From positions 102,201-166,200 of the forward strand of contig DWVI01000004.1 of NCBI GenBank assembly GCA_019120295.1: a stretch of DNA of 64,000 bases, given 5' to 3'. This DNA comes from Candidatus Onthoplasma faecipullorum (lineage in GTDB: Bacteria; Bacillota; Clostridia; Christensenellales; UBA1242). The notes under the pieces were generated by a model. The model did not search any database. It was given only the letters and a program-made list of their open reading frames with translations, and was not told the DNA's origin. The translations under genes and the position numbers were made by a program. Shown one piece after another: positions 1 to 34,726 of this stretch (positions are counted from its first letter, which is position 1; each line of letters opens with the position of its first letter).

Positions 1-640
1 GGGTTCCAACACCACTTGCATTGTTTCTAACCCATAAACCAAGTTTGTATTTCCCACTTAGTAGGTCGTAGACTGGGGTGGCGGTGGTTTCAATTATTTC
101 ATTACCGCGCCTTAAAGTTAGAGTTAATTCCTTTCCTGCGAAATTTGGTAGGTTTATTATTCTATCAATGTCCTGAATGCTATCAATTTCAATGCCTTCA
201 ATGTGAGTTAGTGCATCTCCGTCAACAATACCGCTCGTTTCAAGTGGATATTTTGTTCCTGTGTTGCTAACAACTGGATTTGCTCCAACGCAAATAACGC
301 CTTCACTAAACAAATTAAAACCAACCGTTTCGCCACCAATATATATGTCTGTGTCATTTAATAACTTAACATTAACTTTTTTTATTGTAAAAAGATTAAA
401 TAATTTAACACTCATTGTTGTTTCAGTTAATTCTTCGTCATTTGAAACAACTAAATTTTTAGGGAGCGTCAAGGTTATTGATTTAGAAAATTCGTCACGT
501 TCGTTGGCTTCAATGATGTCTTCATATGTAACCACCATGTCGTTTGGAAGGGCATTCACTCGCTTGATTTCAGGAAGCAAAAAAGCAAGTCCAAACAAAA
601 CAAAAATAACACTAAACGATAAAATTATAACTTTTTTCAT
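1..640 (-). CDS. spoIVB: SpoIVB-type sporulation serine peptidase (S55), N-terminal part; ORF runs off the window start
   Basis: Absent from the ORF track because it is open at the edge. My reverse translation from the ATG at 640-638 gives MKKVIILSFSVIFVLFGLAF (membrane anchor), then a PDZ-like GIVDGDALTHIEGIEIDSIQDI, then KLGLWVRNNASGVGT as at the start of the S55 domain. No stop codon down to position 1. Confidence 0.75.
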   Translation of the reverse strand, partial: MKKVIILSFSVIFVLFGLAFLLPEIKRVNALPNDMVVTYEDIIEANERDEFSKSITLTLPKNLVVSNDEELTETTMSVKLFNLFTIKKVNVKLLNDTDIYIGGETVGFNLFSEGVICVGANPVVSNTGTKYPLETSGIVDGDALTHIEGIEIDSIQDIDRIINLPNFAGKELTLTLRRGNEIIETTATPVYDLLSGKYKLGLWVRNNASGVGT

Positions 641-646
641 AATCAT

Positions 647-675
647 TAGTATGTATGAAATTTCAAATTTTATGT
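647..675 (-). promoter_or_regulatory. Possible forespore sigma (sigG/sigF-like) promoter for spoIVB
   Basis: On the minus strand: ACATA (675-671), a 17 nt spacer, then CATACTA (653-647), which matches the sigG -10 consensus. It lies only about 6 nt from the ATG and no RBS is visible. Confidence 0.3.
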
Positions 676-822
676 TTTTTAAATTTAACCAAAATTTACT
701 ATTTTAATGTTTATTGTCTGGTTGACTTATAATCTTAATGTAAAGTAAAACCACATCAAATTTTATTTAAGCATATTTAAGGTTTATGAAATAAATTTAA
801 TTTAAAACGTATTAAAAATTAG

Positions 823-854
823 CAAAAAACAACTTCCAATTGGAAGTTGTTTTA
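823..854 (-). terminator. Rho-independent terminator downstream of the collagen-like gene
   Basis: Stem AACAACTTCC / GGAAGTTGTT with loop AATT, followed on the minus strand by a T-run. Confidence 0.6.
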
Positions 855-901
855 ATTATAAAATAATTATACTGGCAATGTTTATAAAATTTTCTTAGAT
901 T

Positions 902-2222
<1,321 letters not shown>

Positions 2223-2359
2223 TAGGTGTTTCCACCTATTCCATGATATGTGAAAATAAAAAATATGTTAGTGTTTTAGAAGGATTTTTAAAAGATGTTT
2301 CGTAAACACGCTTTAATAAAAGTAAAAAAATAACAAAACCTAGCATATAAATTATAAAG

Positions 2360-2953
2360 ATGAATAATTTGTTTTCTAATTTATTCAGTCCTTTTAAACA
2401 AAATAAAGGGTTGGCCATATTTTTGATTATTGCCACAATAGTTGTTATTGCGCTTGGGATTTTTAGCGCTATTCAGTTTGATGATAGTGTGTTAATTATC
2501 GACCTTGAAAATGTTACCTACATTAGATACTTGAAAGGGGATAGTGGTTTTGGTGGCTTTTTATTCGGAACGCTTATTTCGGTGTTGATTTTTTATATTA
2601 TAATACTTTCATGTTGTTCAAAAAAATATTTATTGCCGTTTGCAGTGGTATTTTATCTTTATTTGGTTTATAGTCAATTTGTGATATTTACATGTGTTAT
2701 TTTAATATATGGCTTTTTCAACACTTTTATATTTTTATTATTGCTTTTAATTTATTTTTTAACTCTTTACTTTTTGTTTATACTCTTATTTTTAACTTTA
2801 ACTAATTTGTGTGGCCAAATTAATTTTTTTAGGTTGTGTTTTAATAGAAATTCAAATGTTTTAATTTTAACTATTTTATTTATATTATTAGTTTTATTGT
2901 TTTCTATAATTTTAATGTTTTTAAGAACATATATAATTTTATTAATTTATTAA
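2360..2953 (+). CDS. Hypothetical polytopic membrane protein
   Basis: 197 aa ORF that stays open in very AT-rich sequence, with several hydrophobic segments. No family recognised. Confidence 0.45.
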   Translation: MNNLFSNLFSPFKQNKGLAIFLIIATIVVIALGIFSAIQFDDSVLIIDLENVTYIRYLKGDSGFGGFLFGTLISVLIFYIIILSCCSKKYLLPFAVVFYLYLVYSQFVIFTCVILIYGFFNTFIFLLLLLIYFLTLYFLFILLFLTLTNLCGQINFFRLCFNRNSNVLILTILFILLVLLFSIILMFLRTYIILLIY

Positions 2954-3103
2954 AATTTTAAAAAATATAAAAAAATTAATAAAAAATACTAATTTTTAGC
3001 AAGTTTTTTAAAAAAATTTAAGCAAAAAATAATTTTTTTATTAAAATAAAAATAAAAAATACATAAAAATAAATTTTTGAAAAAAACTAAACTAGAGGTA
3101 ATC

Positions 3104-4258
3104 ATGAAAAAGATAATAACATTTAGTTTAGTTTTAATTTTAATCTTTGGAATATTTTTAATTTCAAGCAATGTAACGAGCGCTTACGCAAGTTCAAGTT
3201 TTGAGAGTAGCGTGGTTCACAAGTCAAGCGTACTAATTGAAAAAAATTCAGGCAAGATTTTATACGACAACAATTCTAGCGAACAACTACCAATAGCAAG
3301 TGTTACAAAACTTATGACAATTCTTTTAACCCTTGAAAAAATTGACGCTGGGGAAATTAGTTTAACAGATAAAGTGCATATAAGTGAAAATGCGAGTGGT
3401 ATGGGTGGAAGTCAAATATTCATTGATGCAAACCTAGATTATGAACTCGGCGAACTTTTAAAATCGGTAATTGTTGCAAGTGCAAATGACTCAAGTGTTG
3501 CCCTTGCTGAATATATTGCTGGAAGTGAAAGTAATTTTGTTAAAATGATGAACGAGAGAGCAAAAGAACTTAATTTGAAAAACACAAATTATGTGAATTG
3601 CACAGGTCTTCCTGCACCAGACGGCTATTCATGCGCGTATGACCAAGCGATTATTCTAAGCCACGTTTTGAATTATGACACTTACCACACATATTCTTCA
3701 ATTTGGCTAGAAGATTTTGTTCACCCAGATGGACGTACAACTCAAATGACAAACACAAACCGCTTATCACGTTTCTATGATGGTTGCATGGGCGGTAAAA
3801 CTGGCTCAACTAATCAAGCAAAATATTGCTTAGCAGTTGGTGCAAAACGCGGTGATATGGAACTCATTTCAGTGGTGCTTGGAGCAGATAATAGTAAGGA
3901 AAGATTTAAACTTGCAAGCGACTTATTAGATTATGGTTTTAATAATTTTGAATCAAAAACAATCTTTGACAATAATTCATTAAATGGAATGACAATTAGA
4001 ATAAAAGGTATGGATAGAGTAACACACCTTAAAGCAGAACGCAATTACACACTTGTAACGGACAAAAACGAACAAGTTAACGTTTCACTAAATTATAATT
4101 TACCTAATATGTTATCCGAAGTAAAAACCGACCAAGTGGTAGGAAATGTGGAAATTGTAATAGACGGAGTGGTGGTAGATAAAATCAACATATTATCCAC
4201 CGAAACACACAACCCAGCCACAATTTGGGACTACTTCAAAGAACTCACCAAAGCATAA
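3104..4258 (+). CDS. D-alanyl-D-alanine carboxypeptidase (S11, PBP5-type)
   Basis: Signal peptide plus the motifs SVTKLMT (SxxK), SANDS (SxN) and KTGST (KTG). GAGGT RBS before the ATG at 3104; the track start at 3077 is in frame upstream. Confidence 0.85.
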   Translation: MKKIITFSLVLILIFGIFLISSNVTSAYASSSFESSVVHKSSVLIEKNSGKILYDNNSSEQLPIASVTKLMTILLTLEKIDAGEISLTDKVHISENASGMGGSQIFIDANLDYELGELLKSVIVASANDSSVALAEYIAGSESNFVKMMNERAKELNLKNTNYVNCTGLPAPDGYSCAYDQAIILSHVLNYDTYHTYSSIWLEDFVHPDGRTTQMTNTNRLSRFYDGCMGGKTGSTNQAKYCLAVGAKRGDMELISVVLGADNSKERFKLASDLLDYGFNNFESKTIFDNNSLNGMTIRIKGMDRVTHLKAERNYTLVTDKNEQVNVSLNYNLPNMLSEVKTDQVVGNVEIVIDGVVVDKINILSTETHNPATIWDYFKELTKA

Positions 4259-4370
4259 ATTTTTGCAAGTTAATTATTAAAAGAAAAGTGTTTAAAACAT
4301 GTAAAAAAATGGGCTAATCAACGTGCTCATTTTTTGTATGAATATTTGTTTAAAAATTTGAAACATAATG

Positions 4371-5312
4371 TTATTTAAATATTTTTGCAACAAATTTGTT
4401 TCCTAAAAGTATAACCATTATAATTGTAATTATTAGAGATAAAGCATAGTTAAAATATATTGGAAAATGAAATATATCATAGTAGGCAAAAAGTTTTATG
4501 AAAAATCCATGTAAGAGATAAATAGAGTATGAATTATTATATTTTGATATAAATGAACATTCTTTGTTTGGAATAAGTACTATAACTGAAAATATTATTG
4601 CTAGGGCAAGTAATAACATTCTAGACCTATCTAGTATAGTGTAATTTGCATTGTTATAAGAGTATGAACCATATAATGCAAGCCTATTAGTGTTATATTT
4701 TATTGCCAATATGGAAGATATAATAAGTAAAATTAAAAACAATAGTTTTATAATAATTTTAGTTTTTCGAGTGGTTGAATTAAATTTATTTTCTAAAACT
4801 CTATACGAATTTTTAAAATAAACGCCTAGGATAAAAAATGGTAAAAACACAAATGTTCTAGAAAGGGAATATCTATATCCAACGTCATCTAAATATCCAA
4901 TAAGTAAACTTATTATTACGGATATGAGTAATATAGTAATTTTAAGATACTTATTTTTTACGTTTATGATTGGTAAAATCAACAAGTATATTGCAGAACT
5001 AAACAAATACCAAAGTAACCAATATGGTTGGTAAAATTGCATTGTTAAGTTATTGTGTAATATGTAATTTTCAAATAATATATACAAAACTTGAAAAATC
5101 ATATAGGGCAAAATGAATTTATTTAACAAATTCTTTATTTTAAATTTAGAGAAAAAACCAAATATAAATATAAAAAATGGCATATGGAAAGAATATATCC
5201 ATCTGTAAATTGCTCCGTTGGTGTCAAAAAGTTCTAACAAATGAGCAAAAACAACAAAAAAGATTAGCAAAAATTTTATATTATCGAATTTATATAACCT
5301 AACATTATCCAC
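4371..5312 (-). CDS. Acyltransferase family 3 membrane protein
   Basis: 313 aa and polytopic. The N-terminal FDNIKFLLIFFVVFAHL and FHMPFFIFIFGFF motifs are typical of acyltransferase_3. Confidence 0.7.
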   Translation of the reverse strand: MDNVRLYKFDNIKFLLIFFVVFAHLLELFDTNGAIYRWIYSFHMPFFIFIFGFFSKFKIKNLLNKFILPYMIFQVLYILFENYILHNNLTMQFYQPYWLLWYLFSSAIYLLILPIINVKNKYLKITILLISVIISLLIGYLDDVGYRYSLSRTFVFLPFFILGVYFKNSYRVLENKFNSTTRKTKIIIKLLFLILLIISSILAIKYNTNRLALYGSYSYNNANYTILDRSRMLLLALAIIFSVIVLIPNKECSFISKYNNSYSIYLLHGFFIKLFAYYDIFHFPIYFNYALSLIITIIMVILLGNKFVAKIFK

Positions 5313-5403
5313 TTTTTAATTATAAAGTATTTTGAGTTGCATTTCAACCATATTAACGCCCCAACAAAACATTTAATAGAGAATAACACCTTTTAAAGAT
5401 ATA

Positions 5404-5429
5404 AACAAAAAACTAGCCTAACGCTAGTT
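5404..5429 (-). terminator. Terminator-like hairpin
   Basis: AACTAGC / GCTAGTT stem followed on the minus strand by TTTTTT. Confidence 0.5.
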
Positions 5430-5434
5430 ATGTG

Positions 5435-5524
5435 TGGTAGTCCCAAGGGGCGAGTAGCGTAAAAAAACATACCCCAATGGGTATGTTTTAGCGTAACGAG
5501 TAACCCCTAGGGGTTCGATTCCCC
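5435..5524 (-). pseudogene. tRNA-Glu-derived fragment: 3' acceptor/T-stem copy with a hairpin insert of about 50 nt in the T-loop position, plus an inverted T-arm
   Basis: 5435-5450 (tggtagtcccaagggg) is identical to the 3' end of tRNA-Glu at 5552-5567. On the minus strand it reads GGGGTT[insert]CCCCTTGGGACTACCA. 5510-5524 is a T-arm (ggggttcgattcccc) in the opposite orientation. Confidence 0.6.
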
Positions 5525-5527
5525 ATT

Positions 5528-5549
5528 AAAAAATAGCACGCGTGTGCTA
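5528..5549 (-). terminator. Terminator immediately after tRNA-Glu
   Basis: TAGCAC / GTGCTA stem followed on the minus strand by TTTTTT, 2 nt after the tRNA CCA end. Confidence 0.6.
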
Positions 5550-5551
5550 TA

Positions 5552-5626
5552 TGGTAGTCCCAAGGGGAATCGAACCCCTGATCCCACCGTGAAAGGGTGG
5601 TGTCTTAACCGCTTGACCATGGGACC
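5552..5626 (-). tRNA. tRNA-Glu (anticodon UUC), CCA encoded
   Basis: Manual cloverleaf: acceptor GGTCCCA/TGGGACT, anticodon arm CCACC-CTTTCAC-GGTGG, T-arm AGGGG-TTCGATT-CCCCT, 75 nt. Confidence 0.9.
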
Positions 5627-6150
5627 GCGTGCCGACATCTCGGCTTTGTAATCGTTTTGCTTGTCGCAAAACTTCATTTGTGCCGAATGTCGGCACGTAT
5701 CCCACTGCGTGATATTCATCACTTGTGGGAGCCCTTGTAATTTTGCTTAAAATACTTTAGCTATTGCTAGGTTGCTTATTTCACGGCGCAACCGTTAGTC
5801 CTTTGCTCGGTTGCTCCTTAATTCCCACTGCGTACCTTACGGCACTCGTGGGAGCCCTGATGAACCCCATTTCGACTATGTCTTATGGGGACCCCTGTTT
5901 TAATCGACGTTGTAATCGTTTTGCTTATCGCAAAACTTCATTTGTGCCGAATGTCGGCACTTTTATGAAGGACAACCGCAGGTTTTCCTTCATGGCTTCT
6001 TTTCCTAATAGGTTTTGATTGAATGATTTTTATATGAGTCGAATAATGGGTACCCTACAAATGTTGGATAACACGCAGTAGGGAAAAGGAGTGGTCGACC
6101 AAAAGGTCTATATTCGAGCTAGCAAATTGACAATGGGTCGTACCACGACG
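5627..6150. ncRNA. ORF-free, G+C-enriched, hairpin-dense spacer between the two tRNAs; candidate structured RNA(s) or tRNA-associated element, strand unresolved
   Basis: Contains two copies of a 51 nt module (5646-5696 and 5910-5960, 1 mismatch). Hairpin families occur at 5701-5734, 5824-5857 and 5863-5895, and inverted at 6048-6083. The track ORFs here overlap tRNAs and hairpins and look spurious. Confidence 0.45.
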
Positions 6151-6234
6151 TGGTGGCGATGGCTCTCTTTGAACCTTGATTATCTGCCAACAAAGTTGTC
6201 AGGGAGATGCGTTGGTTCTCTTTGCCATCGCACC
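6151..6234 (-). pseudogene. tRNA-Met-derived 84 nt rod-like hairpin ending in CCA (degenerate tRNA copy or tRNA-like minihelix)
   Basis: The 5' GGTGCGATGGC and 3' GGTTCAAAGAGAGCCATCGCCACCA ends resemble the ends of tRNA-Met (GGCGATGTGGC ... GGTTCGATTCCACCCATCGCCACCA). The interior folds as one long stem, not a cloverleaf. Confidence 0.55.
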
Positions 6235-6238
6235 TTAA

Positions 6239-6314
6239 TGGTGGCGATGGGTGGAATCGAACCACCGATCTATCGGGTATGAACCGATCGCTCTAACCGC
6301 TGGGCCACATCGCC
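6239..6314 (-). tRNA. tRNA with CAU anticodon (elongator Met, or the Ile2 lysidine type), CCA encoded
   Basis: Manual cloverleaf: acceptor GGCGATG/CATCGCC, anticodon arm ATCGG-TTCATAC-CCGAT, T-arm GGTGG-TTCGATT-CCACC, 76 nt. The G1-C72 pair argues against an initiator tRNA. Confidence 0.85.
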
Positions 6315-6479
6315 TTATGCGAATTTATTATATCCAATAAAATAGTCATTGTCAAGTTATTTTTACAAAATTTTAGTATTTTTAGGTTATTATGTAACGT
6401 TTTTATGAAATTTTATTGTTATAAGCTAAAATAATCGCATAATTTCTTTGTTGTGTTTTGCGGTGGTGTGTTTTTGGTT

Positions 6480-7313
6480 TTACAAATTGTCTGTCATGCC
6501 TGAAAGTTTATCATACTCGTCAGGTGTGCCAATATCGTAGAAGGTTCCGTGATGTGGGAAGGTGAAAGATTTTGTGTTTTGAACAAGGTAATTTATAAAG
6601 TAGCCAAGGCTATCGCGTTCCTTTTTGTTATCTTGCTTTAATGTCAAGTAGTGGTCAAGTAGAGCAAAGTCGTGGCGATTGAATAAATATAGAGCGAGTG
6701 AAACGTTATTTGATTTGCAATTTTCAATTCCTGGTTTTTCGTCCAATGAAAGAATGTGATTTTCTGCACCTAGATTTAAAATGCCAAAGTTTTTAGCAAT
6801 GAACTCACGGTCACTATCTGGGTAAACTTTTGAAACAACCAAGTTAGAAGGTCCGTGCATAATTTCTTTATATTGACCATAGATAAGAAAATCGTCAAGG
6901 TCGAAATCAAAATAATTGTCGCTAGCCATAACTAAGATGTGTTCTTCTGAATTAGGCGAGATGTAACGGTTGGCTAAATTCATGTCCATATTAGCGCCAA
7001 TGGCTTCAGATTTATTTTTAGAACCATCATTTAAAATTGTAAATAATAATTCACCATTTTTTCTTGGATTGTTTACCTTCCATTCTTTGCACGCTTCTTT
7101 TATTTGATTGTAATACTTTGCGTTTGTTACAACGATAATTTCGCTAATATCCTTTACTGTTTGTATTTGATTGATTTTATCTAATATAAAATATAAAATT
7201 GGTTGAGTTTTTCCTTCAACTGTAATTGGAAGCAGAGTTTTTGCAACTTCTCCGCCGTTTGTTCTACTTTCTAATCTTGTGGCATATCCACCTGCTAAAA
7301 TAACTATTTTCAT
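6480..7313 (-). CDS. Sugar-phosphate nucleotidyltransferase family protein
   Basis: The N-terminal MKIVILAGGYATRL matches the GxGtRL NTP-transferase signature; 277 aa. Confidence 0.7.
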   Translation of the reverse strand: MKIVILAGGYATRLESRTNGGEVAKTLLPITVEGKTQPILYFILDKINQIQTVKDISEIIVVTNAKYYNQIKEACKEWKVNNPRKNGELLFTILNDGSKNKSEAIGANMDMNLANRYISPNSEEHILVMASDNYFDFDLDDFLIYGQYKEIMHGPSNLVVSKVYPDSDREFIAKNFGILNLGAENHILSLDEKPGIENCKSNNVSLALYLFNRHDFALLDHYLTLKQDNKKERDSLGYFINYLVQNTKSFTFPHHGTFYDIGTPDEYDKLSGMTDNL

Positions 7314-34454: not shown

Positions 34455-34726
34455 GCTTCCGTGGTGTAATGGATAGCACACGCAATACATCTGTGCGTTT
34501 TAATCGTTTACTCGAAACTCGTAAACTTCATTTATGCTTGATGTATTGCGTAACCCCACTTCGACATTGTCTTGTGGGGACCACAGAATAACCCCACTGC
34601 AACATTCGTTTTGTGGGGACCCCAGAATAACCCCACTGCAACATTCGTTTTGTGGGGACCCCGTGAACCATTGCGCTAAAAGATTTGCACGATTTCGAAT
34701 TATTCTAACATTTTAATATCAAATAT
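34455..34726 (+). ncRNA. Candidate structured RNA/element: a copy of tRNA-Arg positions 1-26 fused to about 245 nt of hairpin modules, directly upstream of the intact tRNA-Arg
   Basis: 34455-34480 is identical to 34727-34752. 34481-34550 is homologous to 5629-5696 with compensated stems. Three hairpins of the CCCCAC..GTGGGGACC(CC) family follow, and GAACCATT (34665-34672) matches the tRNA anticodon-stem 3' side. Confidence 0.5.
34585..34662 (+). repeat. Perfect tandem duplication of a 39 nt hairpin unit
   Basis: agaataaccccactgcaacattcgttttgtggggacccc occurs twice, back to back. Confidence 0.9.

Follow-up and report, generated by a model that had tools for sequence, protein, structure and literature searches.

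What is the 84-nt sequence that follows the tRNA-Met gene of this locus so closely and, like the tRNA, ends in CCA? It could be the remains of a second tRNA gene, a tRNA-like minihelix that is still processed, or a product of recombination at the tRNA 3' end. The sequence, referred to here as the rod, lies on the minus strand of the window, which is the whole 64,000-nt stretch of DNA that was analysed. We describe its setting, fold and composition, its counterparts in relatives and the recombination around it, and then weigh the explanations against each other.

Results

Setting of the rod

The genes neighbouring the locus are chromosomal and encode FtsK, an NTP-transferase, PNPase, DacA and an acyltransferase. 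The FtsK of the window matches a protein from a MAG of Candidatus Onthoplasma faecipullorum (order Christensenellales) with 100% identity. The rod runs from position 6234 to position 6151 and has GCCATCGCCACCA as its 3' terminus, and the gap between the CCA of tRNA-Met and the rod consists of four nucleotides, TTAA (6238..6235). The minus-strand sequence reads GGTGCGATGGC-AAAGAGA-ACC...GGTTC-AAAGAGA-GCCATCGCCACCA, exactly as the preliminary description gave it, and the placement of the 84-nt hairpin 4 nt after a bona fide tRNA-Met was confirmed. The features of the locus are listed in Table 1.

The sole strong minus-strand promoter is located upstream of tRNA-Met. The first terminator-like site on this strand (5550..5533) lies past tRNA-Glu, and no other promoter-like site and no terminator was found on the minus strand from the promoter to tRNA-Glu. 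The two tRNA genes are separated by a hairpin-rich spacer of 612 nt (5627-6238). With a single promoter and no terminator ahead of tRNA-Glu, the rod and the spacer would most simply be part of one tRNA-Met/tRNA-Glu primary transcript, as we infer from these signals. An ORF on the plus strand (6091-6282, 63 aa) is antisense to the tRNA and was set aside.

Table 1 Features of the tRNA-Met/tRNA-Glu locus in the window.
Feature	Position	Strand	Basis or remark
Promoter, sigma-70-type, TTGACA-17-TATAAT	6327..6355	minus	12/12 consensus match
tRNA-Met(CAT), encoded CCA	6239..6314	minus	ARAGORN; Rfam RF00005, 67 bits
TTAA spacer	6235..6238	minus	Loop of alternative hairpin between tRNA 3' end and rod 5' arm
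Rod	6151..6234	minus	Predicted fold; with TTAA, the 88-bp indel relative to L019
Rod 5' arm, GGTGCGATGGC	6224..6234	minus	Inverted repeat of tRNA-Met 3' end, complement of GCCATCGC(C)ACC
Rod central hairpin, AUCU-CC-GACA...UGUUGG-AGAU	6182..6208	minus	Predicted fold
Degenerate tRNA-Met copy, T-loop to CCA, 25 nt	6151..6175	minus	In-register alignment
Rod 3' arm	6151-6163	minus	Includes exact 12-nt direct repeat 6151-6162
Trailer module 'B' (CGTCGTGGTACGACC...TTATTCGAC)	6038..6150	minus	Adjoins tRNA-Met CCA in L019
tRNA-Glu(TTC)	5552..5626	minus	ARAGORN; downstream gene of the inferred unit

Within a single species, the spacers of this tRNA operon turn over from strain to strain, and the spacer cassettes vary even among same-species contigs. 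In L003 and L018, the tRNA-Met/tRNA-Glu spacer measures 493 nt compared to 612 nt in the window, a length difference that corresponds to a 14-nt leader (GAGAGTTGCGACGT) versus ~133 nt of hairpin modules just upstream of tRNA-Glu. Short dispersed hairpin modules also occur near tRNA genes at 5640-5960 and 34545-34660 of the window and at 4160-5020 of L013. They form the families GTGCCGACATTCGGCAC plus GTTTTGCGAnAAGCAAAAC, GGGCTCCCAC...GTGGGA, and GGGGTCCCCAT...ATGGGGTT, none of which matched an Rfam family. In L013 the modules are reversed in orientation, with two ~370 nt super-repeats after tRNA-Gly, and several modules on the plus strand of the window resemble intrinsic terminators. Elsewhere in the window, a minus-strand ORF of 435 aa (902-2209) consists mostly of collagen triple-helix (G-X-Y) repeats (PF01391, E = 1.7e-37), visible in the DNA as 9-nt periodic repeats.

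Predicted fold and repeats

RNAfold folds the rod into a single long hairpin of -30.4 kcal/mol. Dinucleotide shuffles of the same sequence gave a mean of -17.05 kcal/mol (sd 2.98; z = -4.48), and none of 200 was as stable, in agreement with the earlier proposal of a rod rather than a cloverleaf. The symmetric 7x7 AAAGAGA/AAAGAGA internal loop that was proposed with it has to be revised, however, since GAACC pairs with GGUUC in the best fold and leaves an internal loop of 5x7 (AAAGA/AAAGAGA). At the base of the hairpin, the 5' GGU pairs with the 3' ACC with one C bulged, so that the final A alone is unpaired.

The repeats of the rod exceed chance. The 13-mer GCCATCGCCACCA, with up to two mismatches, occurs three times in the window against an expectation of 0.41, and two of the three occurrences are the tRNA-Met end and the rod end. 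The 8-mer CAAAGAGA occurs four times on both strands of the 64 kb, twice inside the rod at symmetric positions, while the 5' arm GGTGCGATGGC has a single occurrence in the window. This symmetric CAAAGAGA repeat, which flanks the terminal helix, is non-random, and a scar model alone does not account for it.

Composition of the rod

In its last 12 nt (6151-6162), the rod repeats the 3' end of tRNA-Met (6239-6250) directly and exactly. The agreement extends in register over the last 25 nt, where GGTTC-AAAGAGAG-CCATCGCCACCA of the rod is aligned with GGTTC-GATTCCAC-CCATCGCCACCA of tRNA-Met, and where the rod departs from the T-loop, one whole block is exchanged (2 of 8 positions match) between perfect matches. 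The 5' arm of the rod is the reverse complement of its 3' arm at 11 of 12 positions, including GGT opposite ACC, and matches this reverse complement better than the tRNA 5' end. Both termini of the rod come from tRNA-Met sequence, as had been proposed, and they do so as a direct copy (12 nt exact, 25 nt in register) at the 3' end and an inverted copy at the 5' end.

The interior did not resemble a tRNA in any comparison. Alignment of the rod interior to tRNA-Met revealed no similarity (global z = -1.3, local z = -0.1), the Rfam tRNA model had no match on the rod even at E<=10, and ARAGORN called no tRNA on the rod strand with default settings or with relaxed thresholds of 30-90%. An Rfam scan matched the rod to no family, including RtT, tRNA and mascRNA. 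The suggested decayed tandem copy of the tRNA is not borne out by these values, and the relaxed ARAGORN check, which had been proposed for a pseudo-tRNA, returned nothing on this strand. A tRNA or pseudo-tRNA reading of the rod was therefore dropped, given the missing Rfam and ARAGORN matches and an interior no better than shuffled sequence. By these alignments, the tRNA-derived part of the rod is confined to its ends.

Weak matches to the permuted (two-piece) tmRNA model RF04321 were obtained at 6226-6266 of the window (minus strand; 17.9 bits) and at 5626-5670 of L016 (23 bits), both below the gathering score of 47, and ARAGORN found no tmRNA in the window. These matches result from the arrangement of T-arm, acceptor 3' strand, CCA, loop and complementary strand; a permuted tmRNA was rejected, and the likeness is a structural resemblance only.

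Presence and absence in relatives

The syntenic locus was compared in three lineages, using MAG contigs and fetched loci. Contigs of the same species or subspecies, defined by exact NTP-transferase matches or an FtsK 92-93% identical, carry an identical rod (L001-L008, L010, L017, L018 and L039), and all 14 rod copies recovered are identical. Over the 716 nt compared within the species, 8 SNPs were found; none lies in the rod where about one was expected, so this invariance is uninformative on conservation. With 14 of 14 copies identical, no compensatory changes in the rod stems are demonstrable. Contigs L011, L020 and L038 were too short and fell outside the comparison.

In L019, a strain of the sister species (FtsK 82% identical overall), an identical tRNA-Met is followed directly by CGTCGTGGTACGACC... 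with no rod. Alignment of the window to L019 placed an 88-column gap exactly between CCACCA and CGTCGTGG, and L019 therefore holds a precise 88-bp empty site for the rod together with TTAA. The trailer of L016 (GTDB MAG CALWOU010000002.1), which belongs to the same species as L019 (FtsK 99% identical, 591 aa), is homologous to the 5' 60 nt of the rod (z = 6.8), with GGTGCGA..AGAGAACCA(A/G)CGCATCT followed by a hairpin that AGAT closes. This trailer shares the 5' arm GGTGCGATGGC with the rod, and the base of the central hairpin stem (CATCT/AGAT) as well, while the upper part of this hairpin differs. The L016 trailer is without the 3' arm and without the second CCA copy, and its antisense arm reaches the T-stem 3' strand, with GGTGG opposite CCACC. 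Tandem module-A units in L016 were considered and discarded, the second unit scoring z < 0. In the more distant L013 (NTP-transferase 57% identical), the trailer is unrelated and there is no rod. The tRNA-Met itself is 100% identical in the window, L013, L016 and L019.

A functional minihelix had been put forward for the rod; at its position, L019 and L013 have nothing and L016 has the 5' half only, which, together with the lack of demonstrable compensatory changes, is the outcome that had been named beforehand as its refutation; the minihelix is not supported in that form. Synteny walks with NTP-transferase and FtsK homologues lost the tRNA locus below ~76% FtsK identity. A GTDB scan with the full 76-nt tRNA-Met returned L016 only and retrieved neither the window species nor L013, so that the collection is incomplete for this clade, and a metagenome scan with the module-A pattern returned a same-species contig only.

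Folding competition in the precursor

The tRNA 3' end, TTAA and the rod 5' arm can form an alternative hairpin of -15 kcal/mol. In the tRNA plus rod precursor, the cloverleaf with the rod (-58.2 to -59.0 kcal/mol) and the antisense-hairpin fold (-58.7 kcal/mol) have similar predicted energies. In L016, which is without the second copy, an antisense hairpin of -20 kcal/mol displaces the cloverleaf in the predicted best fold. These predictions suggest that the duplicated 3' end may neutralise the antisense trailer.

Recombination around the locus

Several features mark the tRNA-Met/tRNA-Glu locus as a hot spot of recombination. One of them is an element in L016, with L019 as its empty site, that lies between two direct copies of a 25-nt sequence, GGTTCGATTCCCCTTGGGACTACCA, covering the tRNA-Glu T-loop to CCA. 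This integrative element of 5.06 kb (362-5444, minus-strand orientation) lies inside tRNA-Glu and encodes a tyrosine integrase (4168-5316), a phage-type repressor (459-956) and small ORFs. In L019, a 21-nt direct repeat, GCCACCACGTCGTGGTACGAC, flanks module B (6841-6861 and 7023-7043) and consists of the tRNA-Met 3' end plus the palindromic start of the trailer (ACCACG-T-CGTGGT). A B-like sequence was also seen at another L013 locus (~5035-5095).

Downstream of tRNA-Glu lies a 74-nt element, 'E', at 5435-5527 of the window (minus strand), 6290-6383 of L013 and 7215-7276 of L019. It contains an inverted T-arm, GGGGAATCGAACCCC, and behind it a terminator-like hairpin enclosed by the closing helix AGGGGU/GCCCCU; the 3' end of tRNA-Glu, CCCCTTGGGACTACCA, then recurs in a second, exact copy (window 5435-5450). 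The architecture of 'E' is RtT-like and its conservation exceeds that of the rod: in genomes with an NTP-transferase identity of only 57%, 'E' is still ~92-95% identical, a very high conservation that is unexplained. 'E' is absent from L016, although L016 and L019 are the same species. In L013, three tandem units of ~69 nt follow tRNA-Glu (6371-6530), each of which starts with the last 9 nt of tRNA-Glu (GGACTACCA) and continues with the same terminator hairpin.

Discussion

Origin of the rod

The anatomy of the rod, the empty site, the partial homologue in L016, the hot-spot context and the folding energetics lead us to infer that the rod is probably a recombination-generated, lineage-specific duplication of the tRNA-Met tail beside an older antisense trailer, and neither a degenerate tRNA nor a conserved tRNA-like RNA. 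The indel would consist of two parts, namely an older trailer module 'A', which opens with the tRNA-Met 3' end in inverted form and is present in the sister species, and a second copy of the 3' segment of tRNA-Met (25 nt in register, the last 12 exact), which adjoins the ancestral trailer 'B'. An inverted and a direct copy of the same 12 nt yield a hairpin with an acceptor-stem-like base and CCA. The duplication may have arisen by site-specific (att-type) recombination at the tRNA 3' end, or by short-homology unequal exchange between A-type and B-type alleles, and such a repeat-flanked palindrome could be precisely lost again, as L019 would exemplify. With three lineages compared, the event may have been an insertion or a deletion.

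At the RNA level, the duplication next to the antisense trailer would be transcribed as spacer RNA and perhaps trimmed to a CCA-ended by-product. The rod would be co-transcribed with tRNA-Met and tRNA-Glu, and the second 3'-end copy would pair with the antisense trailer segment that otherwise competes for the tRNA acceptor strand. Trimming by 3' exonucleases, possibly with RNase P, could leave a CCA-ended RNA of ~84 nt, comparable to E. coli RttR from the tyrT trailer.

Against an origin by recombination at the tRNA end stand the mere 76 nt between the direct repeats, which contain no ORF, and the lack of an integrase or cargo. A tblastn search with the L016 integrase detected no integrase homologue in the window, and neither the phage nor the plasmid collection had a blastn match to the rod and module B. 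When viral sequences were scanned for the tRNA/rod junction, the module-A core, the module-B start, the 'E' core and the T-loop to CCA segment of tRNA-Met, any matches were chance ones in high-GC coding DNA, and some of the scans had none. The centre of the inverted repeat (ATTAA) falls outside the direct repeat and thus fits poorly to a simple core-site crossover, which weakens a reading of the inverted repeat as an integrase core site. The remnant of a nearly precise transposon excision was rejected because the insert termini are not inverted repeats of each other.

Alternative explanations

The rod could instead be a functional, RtT-style tRNA-like minihelix that is matured from the tRNA-Met/tRNA-Glu precursor and serves as a handle, sink or decoy, which we consider unlikely. 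Cleavage by RNase P would then fall after GGU, the CCA-bearing helix would halt the exonucleases, and the product could free the tRNA-Met 3' end in the 612-nt spacer, act as a sink for the antisense trailer, or be a decoy for CCA-binding enzymes. The stable fold, an acceptor-like helix of 8 bp that has U at -1, G at +1 and (C)ACCA at its 3' end, the probable co-transcription, the energetic offset of the antisense arm by the second copy and the non-random CAAAGAGA loops are all consistent with such a role, as is the E. coli analogue RttR, an annotated RNA that ends exactly at a duplicated CCA. The rod is nevertheless dispensable, since L019 and L013 do without it and L016 has a truncated form; it has no T-arm or elbow mimic, its CCA is mostly base-paired in the predicted fold, and it joins none of the Rfam families scanned. 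A broader version of this idea, which we judge decidedly unlikely, would unite the rod, 'E' and module B of L019 in an undescribed class of Christensenellales trailer units that function like RtT. Such small cassettes, which would insert or duplicate at a tRNA 3' end and contain antisense and sense copies of it, would be matured by tRNA-processing enzymes into a stable CCA-ended RNA that modulates the maturation of the upstream tRNA, as an anti-antisense or as an RNase P handle.

The same three sequences could belong together as miniature non-autonomous mobile elements (MITE-like or mini cis-mobilisable) that target tRNA 3' ends and are moved in trans by an integrase or transposase. All three are hairpin-rich inserts between tRNA 3'-end repeats (the rod with 76 nt between 12-nt repeats, module B with 21-nt and 'E' with 16-nt repeats), their presence differs between strains, and the identity of 'E' across genomes with strongly diverged NTP-transferases would suit a mobile unit. 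This origin is nonetheless very improbable. The 64 kb contain one rod copy, only the orthologous site matches among the fetched loci, and genome, metagenome and viral scans match nothing beyond the window species and L016. No dispersed copies with terminal inverted repeats (TIRs) and target-site duplications were found in the window or the fetched loci; the terminal inverted repeat of the rod contains one of the direct-repeat copies, unlike a TIR with a target-site duplication, and no cognate recombinase was found nearby. There is an equally slim chance that the whole tRNA-Met gene was duplicated in tandem and that the rod descends from the second copy, whose D, anticodon and T arms have since been exchanged or removed; in the relatives, homologous recombination between the two genes would have eliminated the second one. 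Both ends of the rod match tRNA-Met, its GGTTC is in register with the T-loop, and the empty site of L019 fits the loss of one tandem copy equally well. What speaks against this descent, besides the shuffled-like interior and the lack of any tRNA or pseudo-tRNA call, is the nature of the 5' arm, whose GGT complements the discriminator and CC and is found in no tRNA 5' end. The GGTGG opposite CCACC in L016 is likewise antisense to the 3' end and not a sense 5' end, and the T-loop difference is one replaced block and not scattered decay. A recombination-made trailer hairpin thus remains our preferred explanation of the rod.

Comparison with known systems

Plant mitochondrial t-elements and mascRNA (MALAT1) mimic the acceptor, T-arm and elbow of a tRNA; they are conserved, and their cleavage has been experimentally shown. 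The rod shares with them an acceptor-like helix with a CCA-type end in a longer transcript, which could recruit RNase P or 3' processing enzymes, but it is without a T-arm and is not conserved, and the mascRNA-menRNA model gave no match. The armless mitochondrial tRNAs of enoplean nematodes consist of an acceptor helix, a double bulge, a distal stem-loop and a CCA end, and so resemble the rod in overall shape. The rod differs from them in its 4-nt apical loop in place of a 7-nt anticodon loop, its extra helices and its bacterial origin; with this loop, these helices and this origin, it is not a decoding tRNA.

Tyrosine-integrase elements that insert in tRNA genes are known to leave displaced tRNA fragments (attR/attL) behind (Islander, PMC4383910; PMC9897764). 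As in such att scars, a direct repeat of the tRNA 3' part lies beside the intact tRNA and a relative has an empty site, and a genuine case is found in the neighbouring gene, with the 5.06-kb integrase element of L016 and its 25-nt repeat. The rod departs from this pattern in having 76 nt between the repeats, with no integrase, cargo or phage/plasmid attP match, in having an inverted copy of the tRNA end beside the direct one, and in an exact identity of just 12 nt. If the rod is only a scar, it provides a well-bounded case in which recombination at a tRNA 3' end yields tRNA-like hairpins that are able to fool annotators.

The closest known analogue of the rod is RtT/RttR (RF00391). In the tyrT-tyrV operon of E. 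coli K-12, the last 19 nt of tRNA-Tyr recur downstream at 178-nt spacing, and the annotated sRNA RttR starts 8 nt after the tyrV CCA and ends exactly at the duplicated CCA. In the RtT model, which scores 133-137 bits on E. coli, the complementary sequence GGGGAAGGAU lies upstream and pairs with the duplicated 3' part of the tRNA to form the closing helix, with a CCACCA tail. RttR has been described as taking part in the processing of the tyrT transcript and as likely to modulate the stringent response by a mode of action that is unknown (bioRxiv 10.1101/2024.07.17.603846). The rod, too, belongs to a tRNA operon, where a tRNA gene precedes it at a distance of 4 nt, and it ends in a duplicate of the tRNA 3' end with CCA that is closed by an upstream complement. 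It differs in being a single unit, compared to tandem 178-nt units in E. coli, in its length of 84 nt versus ~130-171 nt, and in pairing the acceptor strand and ACC where RtT leaves CCACCACCA single-stranded; it occurs in Christensenellales and not in Enterobacteria, and no tpr-like ORF lies by it. RF00391 gave no match at E<=10 in positions 5300-6700 of the window. The rod is thus not a member of RF00391, but it resembles the RtT trailer repeats of E. coli more than a working mini-tRNA. If it were processed like RttR, trailer RNAs with a duplicated tRNA 3' end would be present in a second, distant phylum, which would help to address the function of RtT-type RNAs, long obscure, and the locus would offer a simple natural experiment on whether a duplicated acceptor 3' strand protects tRNA folding against an antisense trailer.
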